The notes under the pieces are model-generated. The model was not told the DNA's origin. It saw only the letters and a program-made list of their open reading frames with translations, and searched no databases. Below are positions 7,183 through 25,625 of a stretch of DNA of 64,000 nucleotides, in pieces (the first letter of the stretch is position 1; every line of letters starts with the position of its first letter). The position numbers were made by a program, and so were the translations under genes. The DNA is from Bacteriovoracaceae bacterium (GTDB taxonomy: Bacteria; Bdellovibrionota; Bacteriovoracia; Bacteriovoracales; Bacteriovoracaceae). Location of the stretch: positions 1,312,001 to 1,376,000 of the forward strand of contig JBLWTJ010000001.1 in assembly GCA_048270185.1 (NCBI GenBank), in the 5' to 3' direction.

Positions 7183-8605
7183 CTCCCTCATCTTTTAAAA
7201 GTTTGTACGCACCATCTGAACAAAAGCAATTTGGTGTGTAGCTCATTGTATTTGAAAGCTTTGAAATAATTGAGTTCTCAACATCGGCCAGTAATTTTAC
7301 TTGTCCGTCATCAAGACGAATTTTCACAGGATCTCTCTCAAGTAGAAGATTCGTGAGATTTGTTTTCTTAGCAAGTTCTCTCGGGCTCTTAACAAAGATA
7401 ATCTTCTTCTTTGGAATATCAGGGATAACCCAGTCGGCATTACTTCCCTTCTCTTTCACAAAGTTCACAATATCAGTTGCCTTATTTGTCGTCTTCTTAA
7501 ATAGCTTTTCATTGAAGCCAACATTATCTTGCTCAAGAAGTGATTGTGAGAAGTCACTCGTATCAACATTCTTAGCACCATGACGAAGAAGAAGGATACG
7601 GGCCATATCTTTAATGTCTGGATACTTATCAAACCCTCCATCAACAAGTAGCTTATGAATTGTATTCATAAAGTATGAATCATTGAATCCGTAGAATCTC
7701 ATTGGATCATTACTGATGATATCTAAAAGTTCACTATAGCGATAAATATGTCCCTTCTCTAGCATGTGATAGCAAAGAGCATCGGCAATTGCATCATACT
7801 TAGAACCTCGTGGTGAGCGAATAACTTGCGAGTACCAAGCAAAGCGTGCACTTAAGAAATCCTCCACACAGTGAAGAGCATTTTCTTTAATGGCCAAAAT
7901 ATCGTGGCCAGCTACCTTCTCTGTTGTGAAGTGGTGAAGTAAGTATTCTCTATCGTAAGTTCCATACTTAAGACCAGTATAGTGTGCATCTCTTAAGAGA
8001 TAGTCCATACGGTCACAATCAATCTCAGAGTGAAGAATTTGATTGGCAAGAATTGATGAGTGCGTACCTTTAACTAGATCAGAAATTTCTTGTGGATCAA
8101 TTCCGTGATCCTTAAGAATGCGAGTAAGGCCTCCTTCATAATCTGTATTCTTGATGATGAATGAGCCTAGGTTTTCGTGATCATCTTGAAGACCTTTTCC
8201 ACCTTTCTTATTTGTCGTCTCCCCGATCTTGATATAGGCCATCTCTGTTGTGTGAGAAAAACAAAATGTTCCAATATCGTGAAGAAGAGCTGAGACGCGA
8301 ATGGCCTGATGATACTTGGCCTCTTTCGATTTTTGCTCTTTAATAAATAACTCATGGTCTTCGACACCACGTCCAACTGATCTTAGGATATGGTGGGCAT
8401 TATTTAAAACACCTATTGAGTGGCCATAGCGCGAGTGCTCGGCACCGTGGAAAACGTAGAATGAAAAACCTAATTGTTTAATCCATCTAAGTCTCTGAAA
8501 AAATGGACTGTGAATGATCTCCATCTCAAGTGGAGTTAAGTCAATAAACCCATAAAGTGGATCGTAGACTTTTAGACCTAATTTAGCGTTTGAGACAACT
8601 TCCAT
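7175..8605 (-). CDS. HD-domain phosphohydrolase (dNTP triphosphohydrolase/YdhJ-like)
   Basis: DPLYG, FQRLRWIKQLG, HSRYGHSIG, LLHDIG..FSH and DCDRMDYLLRD. Confidence 0.9.
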   Translation of the reverse strand: MEVVSNAKLGLKVYDPLYGFIDLTPLEMEIIHSPFFQRLRWIKQLGFSFYVFHGAEHSRYGHSIGVLNNAHHILRSVGRGVEDHELFIKEQKSKEAKYHQAIRVSALLHDIGTFCFSHTTEMAYIKIGETTNKKGGKGLQDDHENLGSFIIKNTDYEGGLTRILKDHGIDPQEISDLVKGTHSSILANQILHSEIDCDRMDYLLRDAHYTGLKYGTYDREYLLHHFTTEKVAGHDILAIKENALHCVEDFLSARFAWYSQVIRSPRGSKYDAIADALCYHMLEKGHIYRYSELLDIISNDPMRFYGFNDSYFMNTIHKLLVDGGFDKYPDIKDMARILLLRHGAKNVDTSDFSQSLLEQDNVGFNEKLFKKTTNKATDIVNFVKEKGSNADWVIPDIPKKKIIFVKSPRELAKKTNLTNLLLERDPVKIRLDDGQVKLLADVENSIISKLSNTMSYTPNCFCSDGAYKLLKDEGVI

Positions 8606-18270: not shown

Positions 18271-18540
18271 ATGAAAGGATTCAATTTTAAAAGATTAGCG
18301 ATTATTACTCTAGTGGTTCAGTCAGGATTAGTGATGGCCGAGAAATTTGAAGCTCCTGCATTCTATGACCAGGCGAAAAAACCAATTTCATTCAAAAGCC
18401 AAGTAGTGCACAAAAAGAGTCAGGCTTCATGGCAAGATTCTTATCAAGATGATGCACAATCTGACGCTGAAAAATCAAAACGTCTTCCGTCGTCTAAGAA
18501 CACAAAAGTTAAGTACTGGGATTACGAAAATAAGAAGTAA
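18271..18540 (+). CDS. Small exported hypothetical protein
   Basis: GGGG RBS then ATG 18271; signal peptide; RLPSS motif near the C-terminus. Confidence 0.65.
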   Translation: MKGFNFKRLAIITLVVQSGLVMAEKFEAPAFYDQAKKPISFKSQVVHKKSQASWQDSYQDDAQSDAEKSKRLPSSKNTKVKYWDYENKK

Positions 18541-18563
18541 GTAATTAAGTTTCTTTTTCTAAC

Positions 18564-19397
18564 CTATAAACGACAATCTTTCTTTAAAGTTGATGGCATT
18601 TTTATATTTTTATCTACGAGATCACAAAATAGCTTATTCATTGAATCTTTAATACTCTTATCATTAATCCTATTTGTTTTTCGTACAAGTCTCGATATAA
18701 GATAATTTGACTTAGTTGGTTTGATACTTAAAATATTATCTTTATTTTCAAACGCACATTGATAGTCAGAGTTATCAATACAACCCTCTACTCTAGTCTC
18801 AACGACTCCATAACATCCACTTCTCAAATGCTTGAACAAATCTATTCCATAATCACCTTTCATTTCTTCAAACGATATTTGAAACTTCTTAGCGTAATAT
18901 GAATATGATTCTGCTTCAAAGCACTTTAAATTATCTTGAACTTTTAATCGAGATAGAGTTTTTATAAAATTAACACGATCATTATTTTCAGCATACTCAC
19001 TTAATAACGATTCGCAATTTCCGTAATTACAATCTTCTAATGATTTCTCTTTAGATAAAGTCTTTTGATAGTCTTCGTAGTTTAGCTCTCTGTACTTCTG
19101 AACTCCATAAAACACAGGAGCCCAAATAGGGTAAAAATACGTAAAACTCCAAATACACACCCCGTGAATTTCAATTTCAGAGTCAGAGAAATTTCCCAAC
19201 CCCTCAAATGGCATAGGAATATAATTATCTTTAGCCTTGGACATATCCCAGGCCATTGGCAACTTAAGTCCAAGCAAAACAAACCCAAGTAAAATACTGT
19301 AGCCAACTCTCTTATTTAAGCTTGCAATCTTTCTTCTCTTCTTGAGGTATAACTCAGAAAAAACAAAGCAAATAATCAAAATATCAATCGACATCAT
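18564..19397 (-). CDS. Membrane-anchored Cys-rich hypothetical protein (paralogue of 21688-22566)
   Basis: N-terminal ~55 aa nearly identical to 21688-22566, with a divergent Cys-rich C-terminal domain. Confidence 0.8.
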   Translation of the reverse strand: MMSIDILIICFVFSELYLKKRRKIASLNKRVGYSILLGFVLLGLKLPMAWDMSKAKDNYIPMPFEGLGNFSDSEIEIHGVCIWSFTYFYPIWAPVFYGVQKYRELNYEDYQKTLSKEKSLEDCNYGNCESLLSEYAENNDRVNFIKTLSRLKVQDNLKCFEAESYSYYAKKFQISFEEMKGDYGIDLFKHLRSGCYGVVETRVEGCIDNSDYQCAFENKDNILSIKPTKSNYLISRLVRKTNRINDKSIKDSMNKLFCDLVDKNIKMPSTLKKDCRL

Positions 19398-19417
19398 AAT
19401 ATGATTCTTTCCATTTC
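19234..19417. repeat. 184-bp direct repeat, copy 1 (copy 2 at 22403-22586)
   Basis: Ungapped near-identity at offset 3169, covering 20 bp upstream and the 5' coding end of the two paralogues. Confidence 0.9.
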
Positions 19418-19424
19418 TTAATAA

Positions 19425-19442
19425 AGATTCTAGGTGCTTTTC
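19425..19442. repeat. Degenerate copy of the 18-bp RAYT-flanking repeat
   Basis: AGATTCTAGGTGCTTTTC(ATT) compared with TGGTTCCAGGTGCCTTTT(CATT) at 20633; same orientation. Confidence 0.6.
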
Positions 19443-19445
19443 ATT

Positions 19446-20606
19446 CTAATCGTTTTCTATGGTGATTTTATAAGTGTTATTCTTTCCAGTTTTTTTAAAT
19501 GTCATTCTTAAGTGTTTATTTCTTAAATAATCTTCATCATTATAAAAACGATATCCAATCATGCCTGAATCTATTTCGTAATCAGAAAATGGTTTCCAAT
19601 CAGGATAACGAGCTAAGTATGATGCATCAATATATGATTGTTTCTTCAAACGGGCCATATTTAAGAAGTAGTTATCTACATCCTTCATATTAAACCTCCC
19701 CTTTATAAAAAAAGGCCTAAATTCATATGCTGAATAATATGTTATATAAAGAAGCATTGCGATTGATTGTTTTTCAACAATTTTATTTTTCACAAATATA
19801 CTATCAAGGAATTTATTTCTAGCTTTGAAAGAACTTCCAACAAAACCTCCCTTGTACTCTAATAATTTTTGTCCAGACTCTAGATATTCATCAAATGTGA
19901 ATCTGTCATTTAATAGTAGAGTCTCTCTCAGTTTGTATAACTCATTTTCAGCTGAAAATAATTCATCTCCATACATCATTTTTATAATATTATTTGTCGG
20001 AATATTAATGTGTAATATATCTAATTCGGATATTTTTAAGTAATAAGTATGCTCTTTTATTTTGATTGTTGCATAATCATCATTTAATTTATCAACTAAA
20101 ATTGTACTTCCGGTGTAAAGTAAGAAGTTAAATAACTCTCTATTTTTATCATAAAAAATAGTTTCACTTCCTAGAGGGAGTTTCTCTCCCTCACCTACTG
20201 ATCGTGAAATACATATAGATTTTCTATACTTACCAAGAAAGTTAATATAATAGTCACTTTGCTCAAGCTTAGGATCTTTTGAAGAACAGTTGAGCATATC
20301 CTTGTATTTATCAATAGAATCATTTTTTTGCCATTTAACAAATTCAAGTGCAACCTTCTTAAAACCTCTGTCGTGATAGAGTTTAAAGCGACCAAGCTTT
20401 TGAATATTTTTCTCATCAGGCTTTTGCCAATTCAACGTAATTTGATATTTATCATAAGGAAATCCGTGCCAGTTATTCTCTTTCATAAACGCTATGGCAC
20501 GTTGATCGATTTCCTTGCGTTGCTTTGCTGAATAATTACTCATAGCAGAGGAGTCTACAATAGCTAAAGTTAGAACAATTGAGAATATTGCTTTAAATTT
20601 ATTCAT
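19446..20606 (-). CDS. Exported hypothetical protein, AT-rich
   Basis: Start moved to ATG 20606 (GAGGG RBS); signal peptide MNKFKAIFSIVLTLAIVDSSA. Confidence 0.7.
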   Translation of the reverse strand: MNKFKAIFSIVLTLAIVDSSAMSNYSAKQRKEIDQRAIAFMKENNWHGFPYDKYQITLNWQKPDEKNIQKLGRFKLYHDRGFKKVALEFVKWQKNDSIDKYKDMLNCSSKDPKLEQSDYYINFLGKYRKSICISRSVGEGEKLPLGSETIFYDKNRELFNFLLYTGSTILVDKLNDDYATIKIKEHTYYLKISELDILHINIPTNNIIKMMYGDELFSAENELYKLRETLLLNDRFTFDEYLESGQKLLEYKGGFVGSSFKARNKFLDSIFVKNKIVEKQSIAMLLYITYYSAYEFRPFFIKGRFNMKDVDNYFLNMARLKKQSYIDASYLARYPDWKPFSDYEIDSGMIGYRFYNDEDYLRNKHLRMTFKKTGKNNTYKITIEND

Positions 20607-20632
20607 TTTCCCTCTAGTTTCCGATACAACAT

Positions 20633-20650
20633 TGGTTCCAGGTGCCTTTT
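20633..20650. repeat. 18-bp inverted repeat on one side of the RAYT gene
   Basis: TGGTTCCAGGTGCCTTTT matches the reverse complement of 21656-21673 at 17 of 18 positions. Confidence 0.8.
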
Positions 20651-20690
20651 CATTGACCATGCGTAACCTTATATAAAACTATATAATTGC

Positions 20691-20718
20691 TTATCGTCAT
20701 CGAAGAAAATAAAATTGA
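20691..20718 (-). promoter_or_regulatory. Putative sigma-28-like promoter
   Basis: TCAA-N16-GACGATAA upstream of the 20606 gene; same layout as 22603-22630. Confidence 0.4.
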
Positions 20719-20793
20719 ACAGAATCATTCACTTTAGATAAGCAAAAGATTTACATTATAACTATAAGATAAAACACAGGTAAAGAATTTCAA

Positions 20794-21513
20794 TTAAAAC
20801 AGAGAAATTTGATTTGAATTTGCGTTCTGTATAGGAACAATCTCTTCCCATAGACTAACATACTTAATGTATTTTGGATGAATCACTTCTGGTTCAACAA
20901 TTCTATTTCGAGAATCCTTTCCATAGCGAAAATCAGGCCTCAATAAACCTTGAGAAATGCTTCTATCTTCATCTGTATTGAAACTAATATTTAACCACTC
21001 TAGAGCATCACTTGCTCGATACAAATCAAAAGCAAATAAATCGACTAGCTCAGAATTAGAAAACGGGGTCTCAGGACCAAATAAAGAACAAGTCGAATAA
21101 GGATACATTTGAACTTCAGAGACAAGACTCGCCTTAACAGGGTTTCGTAAAATATACTTGTAAGTATTTGCTCTATAACTTGATTTGGTTAACAAAGAAG
21201 ATTTATATCTACCACCGTAAATTGAGTTTAACACTCCTGCCTTTTTTTGCACTTCTAGTGTTGTCATCTTCATTACCCAGTACATAACTTCATCAATATT
21301 TGCCATGGGAGTTTCGAGCATTAAATGGAAATGATTATTCATTAGTGTAAAGGCATATATTTTCACATTATAATCCCTAACAACTTTCTCTAATGCACTT
21401 AAATAAACCCTCCACATCTGTTTGATAGGCAATGGAAACCAAGTTTTATTATGTGATCTAGCAACAACATGATAAGGATATTTGTTAGTTCTTAATGTTT
21501 TTCTACGCCCCAT
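20794..21513 (-). mobile_element. REP-associated tyrosine transposase (RAYT, Y1/HUH family)
   Basis: YHVVARSHNK, HUH motif MNNHFHL, GRYKS, catalytic YILRNPVKA and YPYST. No adjacent tnpB. Confidence 0.88.
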
Positions 21514-21655
21514 ATTTCACCTCTTACGATATTAACGAGCAAGAAGCTGTAAACTTTAATAAAGATAAGTATCTGAAAGTTTTAAACATTACAGACTATA
21601 TTTAAAAAAACATTAAAATATACATATAAAAAACATGAAAACACATAGCGCAAAG

Positions 21656-21673
21656 AAAAAGCACCTGGAACCA
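21656..21673. repeat. 18-bp inverted repeat on the other side of the RAYT gene
   Basis: AAAAAGCACCTGGAACCA, inverted partner of 20633-20650. Confidence 0.8.
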
Positions 21674-21687
21674 TTTATTGAACCTTC

Positions 21688-22566
21688 TTAATATGATTTA
21701 CACTGATGTTTTAGAACCGTATGGATCTTTTGTTCATGGTTAACTGATTCACATAATATCAAGGTTGCATCATTTTTAAACTTCAAGAATTGTTCGTCGG
21801 AGTAATCTTCTTTCTTATCCAAGTAGTTATTCTTTCCCATAAACCCTATTAATAAAGCTAAGGAAGTATTTATTTTCTTTGAATCAATATTATTTACATA
21901 TTTCATATTTAATTTCAGACATTCGATATCTAGCCCATTGAGACAACTCTTAATTTTCATATTAACAACTTTGGTACACCCTCTTTCTATTGGGTCAATT
22001 AGGTCAATCGAATACTTTTCGACCATATCCTCTATTGTTAAATTAAATTGTTCAGCATAACGAGCATAAGCATTAGCTCTATAGCATTCTAGATTTTTTT
22101 TCTCTTTTAATCGATGTAGTGTAATCAAGAAATTCTTTCTATCATTCTTGTCCGCATAGAAACTGAGTAATGCACCACACTTCCCCATATCACAGTCTTC
22201 TAGAATTTTTTGATCAAAAGCCATTTGATTATAATCTGCATAGGCGTAATCTCTATACTCATTAATAGCAAAAAACACTGGAGCCCATACAGGATAAAAA
22301 TAAGTAAAGCTCCATATTGATGCTCCAAGCAACTCAACCTCAGAATCTGTGAGATTATCGGTCCCCCTGTGTGGCATCGGGATATACCCTTCTCCTTCCC
22401 CGGCCTTGGACATATCCCAGGCCATTGGCAACTTAAGTCCAAGTAGTACAAACCCAAGCAAGATACTGTAGCCAACTCTCTTATTTAAGCTTGATATCTT
22501 TCTCTTTTTTCTGAGATATAGTTCAGAGAAAACATAACAAATTATCAAAATATCAATCGACATCAT
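21688..22566 (-). CDS. Membrane-anchored Cys-rich hypothetical protein (paralogue of 18564-19397)
   Basis: Shared N-terminus MMSIDILIIC..PMAWDMSKA and IWSFTYFYP.WAPVF, with a divergent C-terminus. Confidence 0.8.
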   Translation of the reverse strand: MMSIDILIICYVFSELYLRKKRKISSLNKRVGYSILLGFVLLGLKLPMAWDMSKAGEGEGYIPMPHRGTDNLTDSEVELLGASIWSFTYFYPVWAPVFFAINEYRDYAYADYNQMAFDQKILEDCDMGKCGALLSFYADKNDRKNFLITLHRLKEKKNLECYRANAYARYAEQFNLTIEDMVEKYSIDLIDPIERGCTKVVNMKIKSCLNGLDIECLKLNMKYVNNIDSKKINTSLALLIGFMGKNNYLDKKEDYSDEQFLKFKNDATLILCESVNHEQKIHTVLKHQCKSY

Positions 22567-22586
22567 AATATGATTCTTTCCATTTC
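22403..22586. repeat. 184-bp direct repeat, copy 2
   Basis: Matches 19234-19417 without gaps. Confidence 0.9.
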
Positions 22587-22602
22587 ATTTAATAGTACTA
22601 CT

Positions 22603-22630
22603 TTATCGACATAACAAAATATAAAGTTGA
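22603..22630 (-). promoter_or_regulatory. Putative sigma-28-like promoter
   Basis: TCAA-N16-GTCGATAA, ~35 bp upstream of the 22566 start. Confidence 0.45.
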
Positions 22631-22697
22631 ACAAAGTCATCAACTTCATTAAGTCTAAAGAATAGCGAGGTAGGTATTTGATTATTCTGGTTTTAGG

Positions 22698-23762
22698 CTA
22701 AGACCAAAGATTAGCTTCTTTTTCTAATTCACTCTTAAGCTGTCCGCATGCTGCAAGGATATCACTCCCCTTTGTCGTACGAATCGTCGTCGTAATTCCA
22801 CCACTATCTAATTGCTCTTTAAACCAATTGATACGGCTTACACTTGGGCGCTTAAAATTTGATTCTGGGTATTCATTAAATGGAATGAGGTTAACCTTTG
22901 AAACCTTCTTTGGCAGAAGATTAAGTAGGGCCTTCACATCCTCGGCGCGGTCATTGTACTGATCGATTAGAAGATACTCATAGGTAATATAGCGATGGGC
23001 CTTAAGAGGAATTTCCTTAATCGCTGATAACAGTCGATCAAGGTCATAGGCCTTATTGATTGGCATAAGTTCCGTGCGAATTTCGTTGTGAGCAGCGTGA
23101 AGAGAGATGGCGATATTAACAGGTGGAAATTCTTCAAGCTTCTTGATGGCCGGAACAAGGCCAGATGTAGAAATCGTCACACGTCTTTGAGAAAGACCTA
23201 GGGCCTTCTCATCAACCATCAGTTCAGTTGCGGCCTTTACATTTTCAAAGTTATGCAGAGGTTCCCCCTGTCCCATGAAAACAACATTTGAAAGGCGCTC
23301 TTCTTCACCAACTTTTTCTTTTAAAAATTTTGTAACTGCTAGGAATTGTCCAATGATCTCCCCTGCTTCAAGGTGGCGCATAAGCCCCATTGTTCCAGTG
23401 TGGCAGAAAGTACAACCGATGGCACAACCAACTTGTGAAGACACACAAAGAGTCTTGCGGTTAGAACGAGCAGGAATCATAACCGTCTCAACTGTCTTGC
23501 TATCTCTCATAGCAATAAGAAACTTGCGAGTCCCGTCACTTGAAAGTCCGTTCCAAACTATCTTAGGTAATTCAAAGTCGTAATTTTCAGTTAAAAGCGA
23601 TTTTAAATTCTTTGAAATATTGGTCCAATTTTCAGGATTAAATTCAAGCTTTTCATAAACCCATTGCAGAATTTGATTGGCCACAAAACCCTTCTGACCA
23701 TTCTCTTCAAGGAATGATTTTAAGGCCTTAGGCGATAGCGAATAGAAAAGCTGCTTCTGCAT
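22698..23762 (-). CDS. rlmN: 23S rRNA m2A2503/tRNA methyltransferase RlmN
   Basis: CVSSQVGCAIGCTFC radical-SAM motif, MGQGEP and AACGQL. Start moved to ATG 23762 (GGAG RBS). Confidence 0.96.
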   Translation of the reverse strand: MQKQLFYSLSPKALKSFLEENGQKGFVANQILQWVYEKLEFNPENWTNISKNLKSLLTENYDFELPKIVWNGLSSDGTRKFLIAMRDSKTVETVMIPARSNRKTLCVSSQVGCAIGCTFCHTGTMGLMRHLEAGEIIGQFLAVTKFLKEKVGEEERLSNVVFMGQGEPLHNFENVKAATELMVDEKALGLSQRRVTISTSGLVPAIKKLEEFPPVNIAISLHAAHNEIRTELMPINKAYDLDRLLSAIKEIPLKAHRYITYEYLLIDQYNDRAEDVKALLNLLPKKVSKVNLIPFNEYPESNFKRPSVSRINWFKEQLDSGGITTTIRTTKGSDILAACGQLKSELEKEANLWS

Positions 23763-23915: not shown

Positions 23916-24734
23916 ATGAAATTAGTTCTATCAATTGTGACGATACTTCTTATGAATACGGCCCTTGCTGGTCTCATTGGAACCGTCCCTTCTAAAGACA
24001 AAATCCTTACTCGCATTGATAAGACAACAACTTCAAATTCGGCCCTTTCATCTCGTATCAAGATCGCCGTTTGGAATATGTATAAAGGTAAGAAGCTTAG
24101 TTGGTATCGTGACTACCAAGATCTACTTGCTGATAGTGATATCATTCTTGGACAAGAATTCTTCTTAAAAGACTCAATGAAGTCGGCCTTAGAGAATCCA
24201 TACCAGAGAGAAAATATTCTCGCGACTTCTTTCTTAAATAAAGAAGGAATCGCCACTGGCGTTTTCACAAGCTCAAGCGTTAAGGCCAAGAGTGCACAAG
24301 CTTTCCAAAGTATTGATCGCGAGCCAGTGGCCAACACACCAAAACTTTCTCTTATTACAACTTACCCACTTGAGAGTGGACAGACGCTAACGATTGTTAA
24401 TATCCACGCCCTAAACTTTGTAGGCATAAATCCATTCTTTAAGCAAGTCAACGAACTGATTAAAGCAGTCAAAAAACTTAAAGGCCCAGTGGTTTTTGCA
24501 GGTGATTTTAATACAAATGCTCCTTCTAAGACTCTTTCAATGAAGATGTTATTTAAAGGTGCGGGCTTTAAGGAAGTTAAATTCTCAGGTAAAGATTCTC
24601 GTATGACGTTCCTCGGCCAAAAGCTTGACCATATTTGGTACCGCGGTCTAGAGCTAGTGGATGCAAGAGTGTTAGGAAATGTTGACGGTTCTGACCATAA
24701 GCCGATGCACGCAATTTTTGACACCATCGAATAA
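23916..24734 (+). CDS. Secreted endonuclease/exonuclease/phosphatase (EEP, YafD-like)
   Basis: Signal peptide, WNMYKG, LGQE, NIHALNF, AGDFN, LDHIWYRGL and SDH. Confidence 0.88.
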   Translation: MKLVLSIVTILLMNTALAGLIGTVPSKDKILTRIDKTTTSNSALSSRIKIAVWNMYKGKKLSWYRDYQDLLADSDIILGQEFFLKDSMKSALENPYQRENILATSFLNKEGIATGVFTSSSVKAKSAQAFQSIDREPVANTPKLSLITTYPLESGQTLTIVNIHALNFVGINPFFKQVNELIKAVKKLKGPVVFAGDFNTNAPSKTLSMKMLFKGAGFKEVKFSGKDSRMTFLGQKLDHIWYRGLELVDARVLGNVDGSDHKPMHAIFDTIE

Positions 24735-24788: not shown

Positions 24789-25625
24789 GTGAAAAAAATT
24801 GCATTAAGCATAATGCTTGCGATGTCGACACTTGCAAGCTCAAATATCAGTACAAAATCACTTCTTCATAAAATACCAAGCATCAATAATGTCATCGATT
24901 ACAAATCAAATGTAAGCTGCCCGACTTGCTACTTCCCAAATGAGTTCACGGTAACGGCATGGAATATGTACAAGGGAAAGAATGAAAGCTGGGAAAGTGA
25001 TTTCGATGCACTTCTTGCTGAAAGTGATATCCTGCTTGGCCAAGAGTTTATCCTAAAAGATGTCATGAAGGATCGTCTGCAAACCCCAGTTGATGAAGAT
25101 ATCGTTCTTGCCACTTCTTTTGTAAGTTTTAAAAAGTACAAAACAGGTGTGACTAATATTTCAAAATTTGCGACGTCTTTAATCACTCCCCTTCGAAGTG
25201 ATGTTAAAGAGCCTTTCATTGGCACGCCAAAAATGGTTCTTTCAACTCAGTATGAATTAGAAGACGGGCGCCCAATTACTTTCATCAATATCCACGCCAT
25301 CAACTTCGTGGCCAAGAGAAAGCTTAAGAAGCAACTTAAGCAAGTTATGAAACATATCAATTCGACAACAGGCCCTGTGGTCTTTGCCGGAGACTTCAAT
25401 ACAAATTCAAAGAAGAAAATTCGCATGATGCGCGAGCTCCTAACGTCAATTGGATTCCAAGAGGCCGTCTTCATAGGTCGTGATGATCGTATGAAATGGC
25501 TTGGAAATAAACTGGACTATATTTGGTATCGTGGGCTTGAGCTAATCGAAGCTCGTGTGCGCGGTGAGGTTCAGGGCGCTGACCATAAACCTCTGCAGGC
25601 GACGTTCAAAGTTATTAACGAATAA
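24789..25625 (+). CDS. Secreted EEP-family protein, tandem paralogue
   Basis: Same motifs: WNMYKG, LGQE, AGDFN, LDYIWYRGL and ADH. Confidence 0.88.
   Translation: MKKIALSIMLAMSTLASSNISTKSLLHKIPSINNVIDYKSNVSCPTCYFPNEFTVTAWNMYKGKNESWESDFDALLAESDILLGQEFILKDVMKDRLQTPVDEDIVLATSFVSFKKYKTGVTNISKFATSLITPLRSDVKEPFIGTPKMVLSTQYELEDGRPITFINIHAINFVAKRKLKKQLKQVMKHINSTTGPVVFAGDFNTNSKKKIRMMRELLTSIGFQEAVFIGRDDRMKWLGNKLDYIWYRGLELIEARVRGEVQGADHKPLQATFKVINE

Follow-up and report, generated by a model that had tools for sequence, protein, structure and literature searches.

Introduction

Tyrosine transposases that have long terminal inverted repeats (TIRs) at their flanks form a named class. In the text of PMC3733652 (Di Nocera 2013), a TIRtron is a gene for a tyrosine transposase resembling the RAYTs (REP-associated tyrosine transposases; REP, repetitive extragenic palindrome) and flanked by long TIRs, the enzyme being a TIRYT; the text of PMC6006769 (Quentin 2018) equates the TIRYT class with TnpA_Y1 subclass 2.1, which is RAYT group 1 of Bertels 2017 (PMC5581495). 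This is the largest RAYT subclass, in 14.9% of strains, and the text of PMC6006769 gives no REP-like target for it; why bacteria keep RAYTs is left open in that of PMC5581495. Here we describe such a locus in a Bacteriovoracaceae bacterium, in a stretch of 64,000 nucleotides (contig JBLWTJ010000001.1, positions 1,312,001 to 1,376,000; hereafter the window, to which bare coordinates refer). Its transposase gene lies with three other genes, A, B and A', in a strain-specific island (18537..22698, no strand) next to rlmN. We report the anatomy of this locus, the match between its TIR and its enzyme clade, related mini-elements dispersed through other genomes, their positions at strain-specific genes and insertion junctions, and one unit present at two loci. 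On balance we think it probable that the locus is a TIRtron seated in a split element of ~50 base pairs (bp), whose enzyme mobilises the mini-element and sometimes also genes next to it.

The window enzyme is a member of the TIRtron/TIRYT class. As in the TIRtrons of PMC3733652, going by its text, the flanking TIRs are unrelated to GTAG-footed REPs, TIR families are modest and occur in dimers or clusters, and a genome has several enzymes, every one with a TIR of its own. Unlike in those TIRtrons, the window TIRs begin GGTNCC and lack GGGGWSAS (found in some TIRs only, and not required), and the two arms of the dimer are fused into one 50-bp unit around a core that is conserved and asymmetric, the gene lying inside a split unit. 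Neither Bdellovibrio nor Bacteriovorax was found in the main text or four text supplements of that paper, figures apart, nor did its text link TIRs to cargo, duplications or hotspots. With subclass 2.1, as the text of PMC6006769 characterises it, the enzyme shares NH[YF]H, Y---NP and a downstream serine, its length (239 residues against a median of 238), the lack of REPs, low copy number and divergent paralogs, but its YILRNP matches the listed YIELNP and Y[IV]HLNP only in part, and no helix-turn-helix tail was detected.

More distant systems share some of these features. RAYTs of groups 2 and 3 and their REPINs, in the text of PMC8266576, are alike in fold, in catalytic residues and in pairing a single-copy enzyme with non-autonomous paired repeats, but here there is no GTAG foot, the arms form no hairpins alone and sites number from few to about a dozen per genome, not hundreds. 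ISCR and IS91 elements would be alike in their HUH enzyme, one-ended mobilisation and host duplications around captured genes; however, in the text of PMC3575428 ISCRs have no inverted repeats and have dissimilar oriIS and terIS ends, whereas the window has inverted repeats and a Y1 enzyme. The tnpA_REP genes beside prochlorosin genes, also of group 1 or subclass 2.1, were proposed to diversify their neighbours (bioRxiv 10.1101/2020.03.09.984088), but the authors withdrew the causal claim after submission and the text of the preprint defines no target repeat or junction. New relative to the known class, and not found in print, are TIRs of the GGTNCC type in Bdellovibrionota, a fused unit of 50 bp whose enzyme gene occupies a split site, and the evidence from junctions; they were absent from a literature covered mostly at the level of titles and abstracts, together with the text supplements of two key papers, whose figures may list such TIRs.

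The window transposase and its cognate TIR

The transposase (20794..21513, minus strand; 239 residues) matches PF01797 with 31.3 bits, above the cut-off; in alignment H61-F-H63 (NHFH) and Y120 in YILRNP are conserved, and its fold has as best match 4er8, the TnpA_REP of E. coli (E 1.8e-6). It is single-copy in the 3.35-Mb assembly of this genome (G000), beside three paralogs at 32-50% identity. Its C-terminal tail has no helix-turn-helix match in Pfam and is modelled with a pLDDT (predicted local distance difference test score) of 58-78. The enzyme ends in QISLF (20797-20811, minus strand), retained in three close homologues; this resembles the sliding-clamp motif QL[SD]LF given in the text of PMC6006769, and may tie the enzyme to the replication fork. 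The closest named homologues are 86%, 72% and 70% identical, the named ones being from Halobacteriovorax. Scanning of genome contigs yielded 10 loci, of which one, at 52%, carries another TIR, and viral contigs yielded no relative of the enzyme.

The upstream TIR (21648..21673, minus strand) lies 14 nucleotides (nt) beyond the stop codon of gene A and the downstream TIR (20633..20666, plus strand) 26 nt ahead of the start of gene B. The inverted pair (20633-20655 and 21651-21673) extends over 23 nt at 91%, with arms that start GGTTCC and lie ~140 nt from either end of the transposase gene. Since 47 of 300 simulated 4-kb islands (first-order) yielded an inverted match of at least 18 nt with one mismatch at most, against 19 nt observed, the pair taken alone does not go beyond local chance. 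Its reality follows from comparison: G015, a genome of another genus, has three exact arm copies in 3.4 Mb, all less than 2 kb from a sister transposase. The window enzyme and that of G015 are sisters in the tree (support 95/85), with the same TIR on both. More broadly, we examined 42 related loci, which represent 41 distinct proteins and exclude the weak matches L020-L023 and L049-L055. TIRs scoring at least 15 surround the gene in 34 of them, against 0.5% of 400 random pairs, and at 10/15 loci of a second set that partly overlaps the first; TIR sequence, moreover, tracks the protein tree. By association, these results support the motif as the cognate end repeat of this transposase clade.

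A first-pass annotation, made from the letters of the window, had likewise proposed an 18-bp motif as cognate to the transposase, with an inverted pair and a degenerate third copy at gene boundaries, and had remarked that it lacks a GTAG foot and a hairpin. All this stands, the single arms being unable to fold. The annotation had also regarded the enzyme as a RAYT of the REP type, which gives way to the already named TIR-associated class: there is no foot, the arms are unfolded, the whole assembly has just the two window copies within two mismatches of the motif, and the REP-associated model NF047646 scores 54.2, below its cut-off of 80. IS200/IS605 was rejected as well (NF033573 at 19.3, below the cut-off of 55; a single copy; paralogs at 32-50%; unfolded ends), as was an integron, no island protein matching an integrase family and the orientations being mixed. 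Unequal, gene-sized spacing ruled out a CRISPR-like repeat.

G000 carries three more TIRtrons, each with its own TIR (C1:821213/821988, C1:563170/564087 and C3:365811/366601). Two have dimers of their own TIR elsewhere, the third single copies. The dimers measure 52-210 bp (for example C2:44089-44140 and C1:1303487-1303688), and several of these paralog TIRs begin at or overlap the stop codon of the adjacent gene.

The TIR is an arm of a ~50-bp element

The exact 16-nt arm was searched for in 238 genomes, with the reversed sequence as control, and matched in 15, among them 6 of the 12 congeners of G000; the control gave one match. What the first-pass annotation had missed is that the motif is the arm of a larger element. 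In the congeners this element measures ~50 bp and consists of an arm, an asymmetric core of 18 nt and the inverted arm. In the window the core runs inward from both copies: arm 1 of the upstream TIR is joined to the first ~8 nt of it, and arm 2 of the downstream TIR to the last 16 nt (positions 23-57 of a hidden Markov model (HMM) of the element, E 1.7e-7), with an overlap of ~6 nt. Because the two TIRs hold complementary, overlapping parts of the core, we place the transposase gene inside a split ~50-bp element. The third, degenerate copy (19425..19445, plus strand) has arm 2 and 4 nt of core, is direct relative to the downstream TIR and begins 3 nt beyond the stop codon of B.

The HMM was trained on 10 congener copies, which match it by construction. 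In G000 it found two further sites, C1:1062387 (E 3e-12) and C3:235973 (E 0.013), the best E in the reversed genome being 0.91; 6 of the 12 congeners have 1-16 matches per genome, in some cases with a single site counted on both strands. An intact copy forms a hairpin (z about -3.5), whereas the halves in the window, like the single arms, do not fold. RNAalifold found no consensus structure for 48 matches, in an alignment that mixed both strands of 5 sites.

Two elements are rearranged (L201:5592-5649 and L218:6336-6382; L201 also holds an intact copy at 7864-7913), with an inverted duplication of the first bases of the core, which suggests recombination inside the core. In G121, from another genus, direct arm copies 2.2 kb apart (L198:7120 and 9311) surround small variable genes; this pair has neither core nor nearby transposase. 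A metagenome scan with the 16-mer returned at least 120 loci; of those listed, one (L156) carried an inverted pair and the other 119 a lone arm. None of the listed loci matched the transposase, A or B, and we treated them as chance.

Elements adjoin strain-specific genes and lie at insertion junctions

The neighbourhood of the element was scored at 23 congener loci, counting elements of at least 17 bits. The count excludes L202 (a contig end) and L229 (the weakest match, 14-16 bits, among genes with G000 matches). Of 38 elements that reached 17 bits one, at a contig edge, was left unscored, and the scored ones all (37/37) have beside them one or more genes that lack an orthologue in G000. As background we took 400 kb of G011 DNA drawn evenly from the genome: 52 of its 146 spacers have such a neighbour, and no element was found in it. 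Two other TIR families, scored in the same genomes at a subset of their sites, adjoin non-shared genes at 12/21 and 8/14 sites, 20/35 together, which differs from 37/37 with a Fisher P of 3e-6 and from the background with a P of 0.02. The genomes in this test and in that of duplications below are kin, and hotspots recur among them, so that the P values are overstated. In line with the first-pass annotation, further copies of the motif exist, beside strain-specific genes and at insertion junctions.

At the hotspots (dus-mutM, recQ, ihf, deaD and others, labels that are in part our own assumption from the sequence) the cargo differs from species to species. Element-adjacent cargo, often anti-phage defence, includes matches to SIR2-HerA, Lamassu and PDC-M54A/M55C. 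Loci with defence matches, and with what we take to be a toxin-antitoxin-like pair, are L212:8137-10928, L214:6082-8912, L220:6230-12603 and L197:10132-10757; for that pair the scan gave weak matches only.

Among 24 host direct repeats in these loci, 4 have an element at an inner end, where permutation gives a mean of 0.36 (P 0.0012). The clearest case, the phe locus of G008, consists of a 140-bp repeat, an element, two genes and the second repeat, and is empty in G011, G004 and G009; in the window, B and the TIRtron are arranged likewise, within a repeat that is older. An identical 65-bp stretch of element plus flank, together with 617 bp of one cargo gene (97%), is present both at phe in G008 and at recQ in G004, and the G004 cargo ends in a half copy of arm 2, like gene B. 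In G004 (L225:6531-7418) an open frame reads through the element into the cargo gene, the element standing in place of the moved gene's first codons. The G015 TIRtron, with the three genes downstream of it, makes up a 5.9-kb block, absent from 3/3 relatives examined, with the upstream TIR as one end, a third direct copy after the first cargo gene and a far end without a copy. Junctions are located either ~2-9 nt beyond an arm, in one case 20 nt, or among the core's first bases.

Could these positions arise passively? The TIRtron might only copy its mini-element, as with REPINs, the copies persisting where insertions are tolerated and their hairpins attracting illegitimate joints during homology-driven uptake, while the enzyme moves no cargo. 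This account, which we consider possible but doubtful, can draw on the hairpin of the intact element, on microhomology at several junctions and on the mild enrichment of the other TIR families at variable genes. It poorly accounts, however, for 37/37 against 20/35 for sister TIR families in the same genomes, for an identical element moving with one cargo to two loci, and for the layout of TIR, cargo and half TIR shared by the window, G015 and G004.

Several results weigh against a mobilising enzyme in a split element, and the first two of them also favour the passive account. Duplication-flanked insertions without an element at the inner end are common (20/24), and a close enzyme was not found in 5/6 element-bearing congeners: G002, G004, G008, G010 and G011 hold elements and gave no enzyme match at 1e-45, and the match in G009 is a paralog with another TIR. 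Cargo shared between two loci is a single case among 26 loci compared, no common cut motif was seen at the junctions, and no joint at a motif copy appeared in sequencing runs, checked as contigs only from 4/8 listed runs, in which the transposase gene was without cover. The split anatomy is that of the window locus only, because the TIRs of G015 lack the core. Finally, the 184-bp direct repeat of A and A' (22403..22586 and 19234..19417, both minus strand; a 20-nt leader plus the first 55 codons, 90% identical as DNA) is not recent, since 12/46 third positions differ (22/47 and 18/40 farther along the genes), and its tie to the third motif copy is therefore weak.

Some assemblies break at elements. 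The G002 contig C3 begins and ends inside element cores (L202:1-33 and L228:9788-9821), near the position at which the transposase gene is inserted in the window. These breaks could mean collapsed inserts; three other G002 contig ends showed nothing, and we do not use them as evidence. The G010 assembly also breaks at elements (end of L061, start of L203).

The island is probably not a resident cassette platform

The first-pass annotation had suggested that the locus, in the interval between sppA and rlmN, may be a site of cassette acquisition and shuffling driven by the transposase; in a strong form of this idea, the transposase would be a resident recombinase working in the manner of an integron. 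That the locus varies between strains was borne out. Contigs of runs X1 and X4 (one study; flanks ~98% identical) join 18536 to 22699 with 17 other letters, so the whole island is a presence/absence polymorphism. Repeated cassette gain or reordering at this site found no support: the island is in 0/12 congeners, with no transposase, A, B or motif seen beside rlmN in the stretch compared in any of the 12, and its outer ends show neither motif nor target duplication. On the rlmN side the interval is empty in 9 congeners and unclear in G010 and G012; G003, a distant congener, has ~3 kb of unrelated DNA between sppA and rlmN (L040:5509-8532), so this interval has received another insert.

Some observations do recall an integron. 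Cargo lies downstream of the enzyme and co-oriented with it in both the window and G015, a promoter-like site inside the TIRtron points toward B (20755..20784, minus strand; 10/12 consensus matches only, and not significant, with 17 such sites in the region against 22.5 in shuffles), and G004, G008 and G009 have arrays of 3-6 elements. Relative to the upstream gene, 13 of 40 elements have a co-oriented stop codon, 4 an opposed one, 8 both and 15 neither, so that element orientation is weakly tied to that gene. We nevertheless consider a resident recombinase that adds or reorders cassettes at this site improbable: the entire island is missing from the same-species allele as well as from congeners and has one bracketed cargo only, the arrays lie far from any such enzyme with mixed orientations and 0-3 genes per interval, and 15/40 elements have no stop codon within 70 nt. 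That the 50-bp elements are terminators or operators, with TIR likeness reflecting ancestry only, is highly improbable, for although 25/40 have a stop codon no more than 70 nt away and an intact copy forms a hairpin, none was found in the sampled G011 DNA, elements come and go with insertions, the window copies do not fold, and no terminator-like site was found in the island.

One-ended transfer as a possible route

How might a TIRtron in a split element move its neighbours? TnpA_REP makes nicks in single strands close to its repeat and carries out strand transfer, according to the text of PMC8266576, and that of PMC3575428 describes for ISCRs a one-ended mobilisation of adjacent DNA and their occurrence with duplicated host segments. 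By analogy, the window enzyme would likely nick DNA in single-stranded form, either inside the core or a few bases beyond the arms, and would so copy the mini-element, at times taking adjacent genes along. The nicked end could then be rejoined, one-endedly, to a site farther along; the product, a circle or a strand, would hold the element, its cargo and a portion of host DNA. Its host part would let this product re-enter by homologous recombination, leaving an ISCR-like order of duplication, element, cargo and duplication, and the co-captured host DNA would steer the cargo into hotspots. The enzymes of ISCRs belong to another, larger HUH family. In the window, the island may have been built stepwise, A or A' arriving first and the TIRtron, B and a second A allele then entering between the 184-bp repeats, a course that would leave the half copy at 19425.

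More tentatively, and as a suggestion we would not press, the TIRYTs of this clade may be domesticated gene-capture recombinases. On this view the enzymes would recombine at the 50-bp element, their own gene would be a cassette moving into and out of its core, and defence and surface genes tagged by elements would be shuttled between chromosomal hotspots. If so, they would amount to a counterpart of integrons and ISCRs built on an HUH enzyme, with a role for the host that would explain the retention of group 1 RAYTs. If the enzymes do move host genes, they would give anti-phage systems of these bacteria, SIR2-HerA and Lamassu among them, a little-noticed route of turnover, and would be a compact system for joining DNA. 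With a substrate of 50 bp that is defined, a cognate enzyme, junctions already mapped, and filled and empty alleles in close strains, this family allows a direct test of whether such enzymes move host genes.

Genes and other features of the island

The island lies between the convergent stop codons of an 89-residue gene and rlmN. Its four genes, described by the first-pass annotation as co-oriented, are indeed all minus-strand open reading frames: A (21688..22566), the transposase, B (19446..20606) and A' (18564..19397). The block had been called AT-rich; this applies to 18500-21999, with 28-34% GC, and not to 22000-22499, with 38% (contig ~37%). The ending of A/A' homology beside the third motif copy was also correct, the likeness stopping at 19417, 7 bases short of it.

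Gene A encodes a Cys-rich near-orphan of 292 residues and A' a diverged paralog of 277 residues, 51% identical. Each has two predicted hydrophobic N-terminal segments, which in A are predicted to be membrane segments, and only weak relatives were found, in 3/237 other genomes. Gene B (386 residues, with a signal-peptide-like N-terminus) has a single relative (40%), which lies ~1.5 kb from an element in a different hotspot, one of those in G008 that carry elements. For B the most likely start is 20606, preceded by a GAGGG ribosome site; a reading from the in-frame ATG at 20660 would run through the motif and add 18 residues. Searches of Pfam, NCBIfam and PADLOC returned no matches for A or B, and structure and feature searches no usable family, the SH3-like matches of B, below 0.9, being leads only. 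The cargo had been proposed to be exported; A and A' look membrane-anchored instead, and elsewhere the cargo is often anti-phage defence.

Rfam matched nothing over 18300-22900. A contig of run X1 tracks A' up to 18971 and then continues with at least 255 unlike letters, possibly another A' allele or a mosaic in the population. Beside rlmN, two adjacent genes resemble the endonuclease/exonuclease/phosphatase family, one at 23916-24734, with a Pfam match, and the other at 24789-25625.

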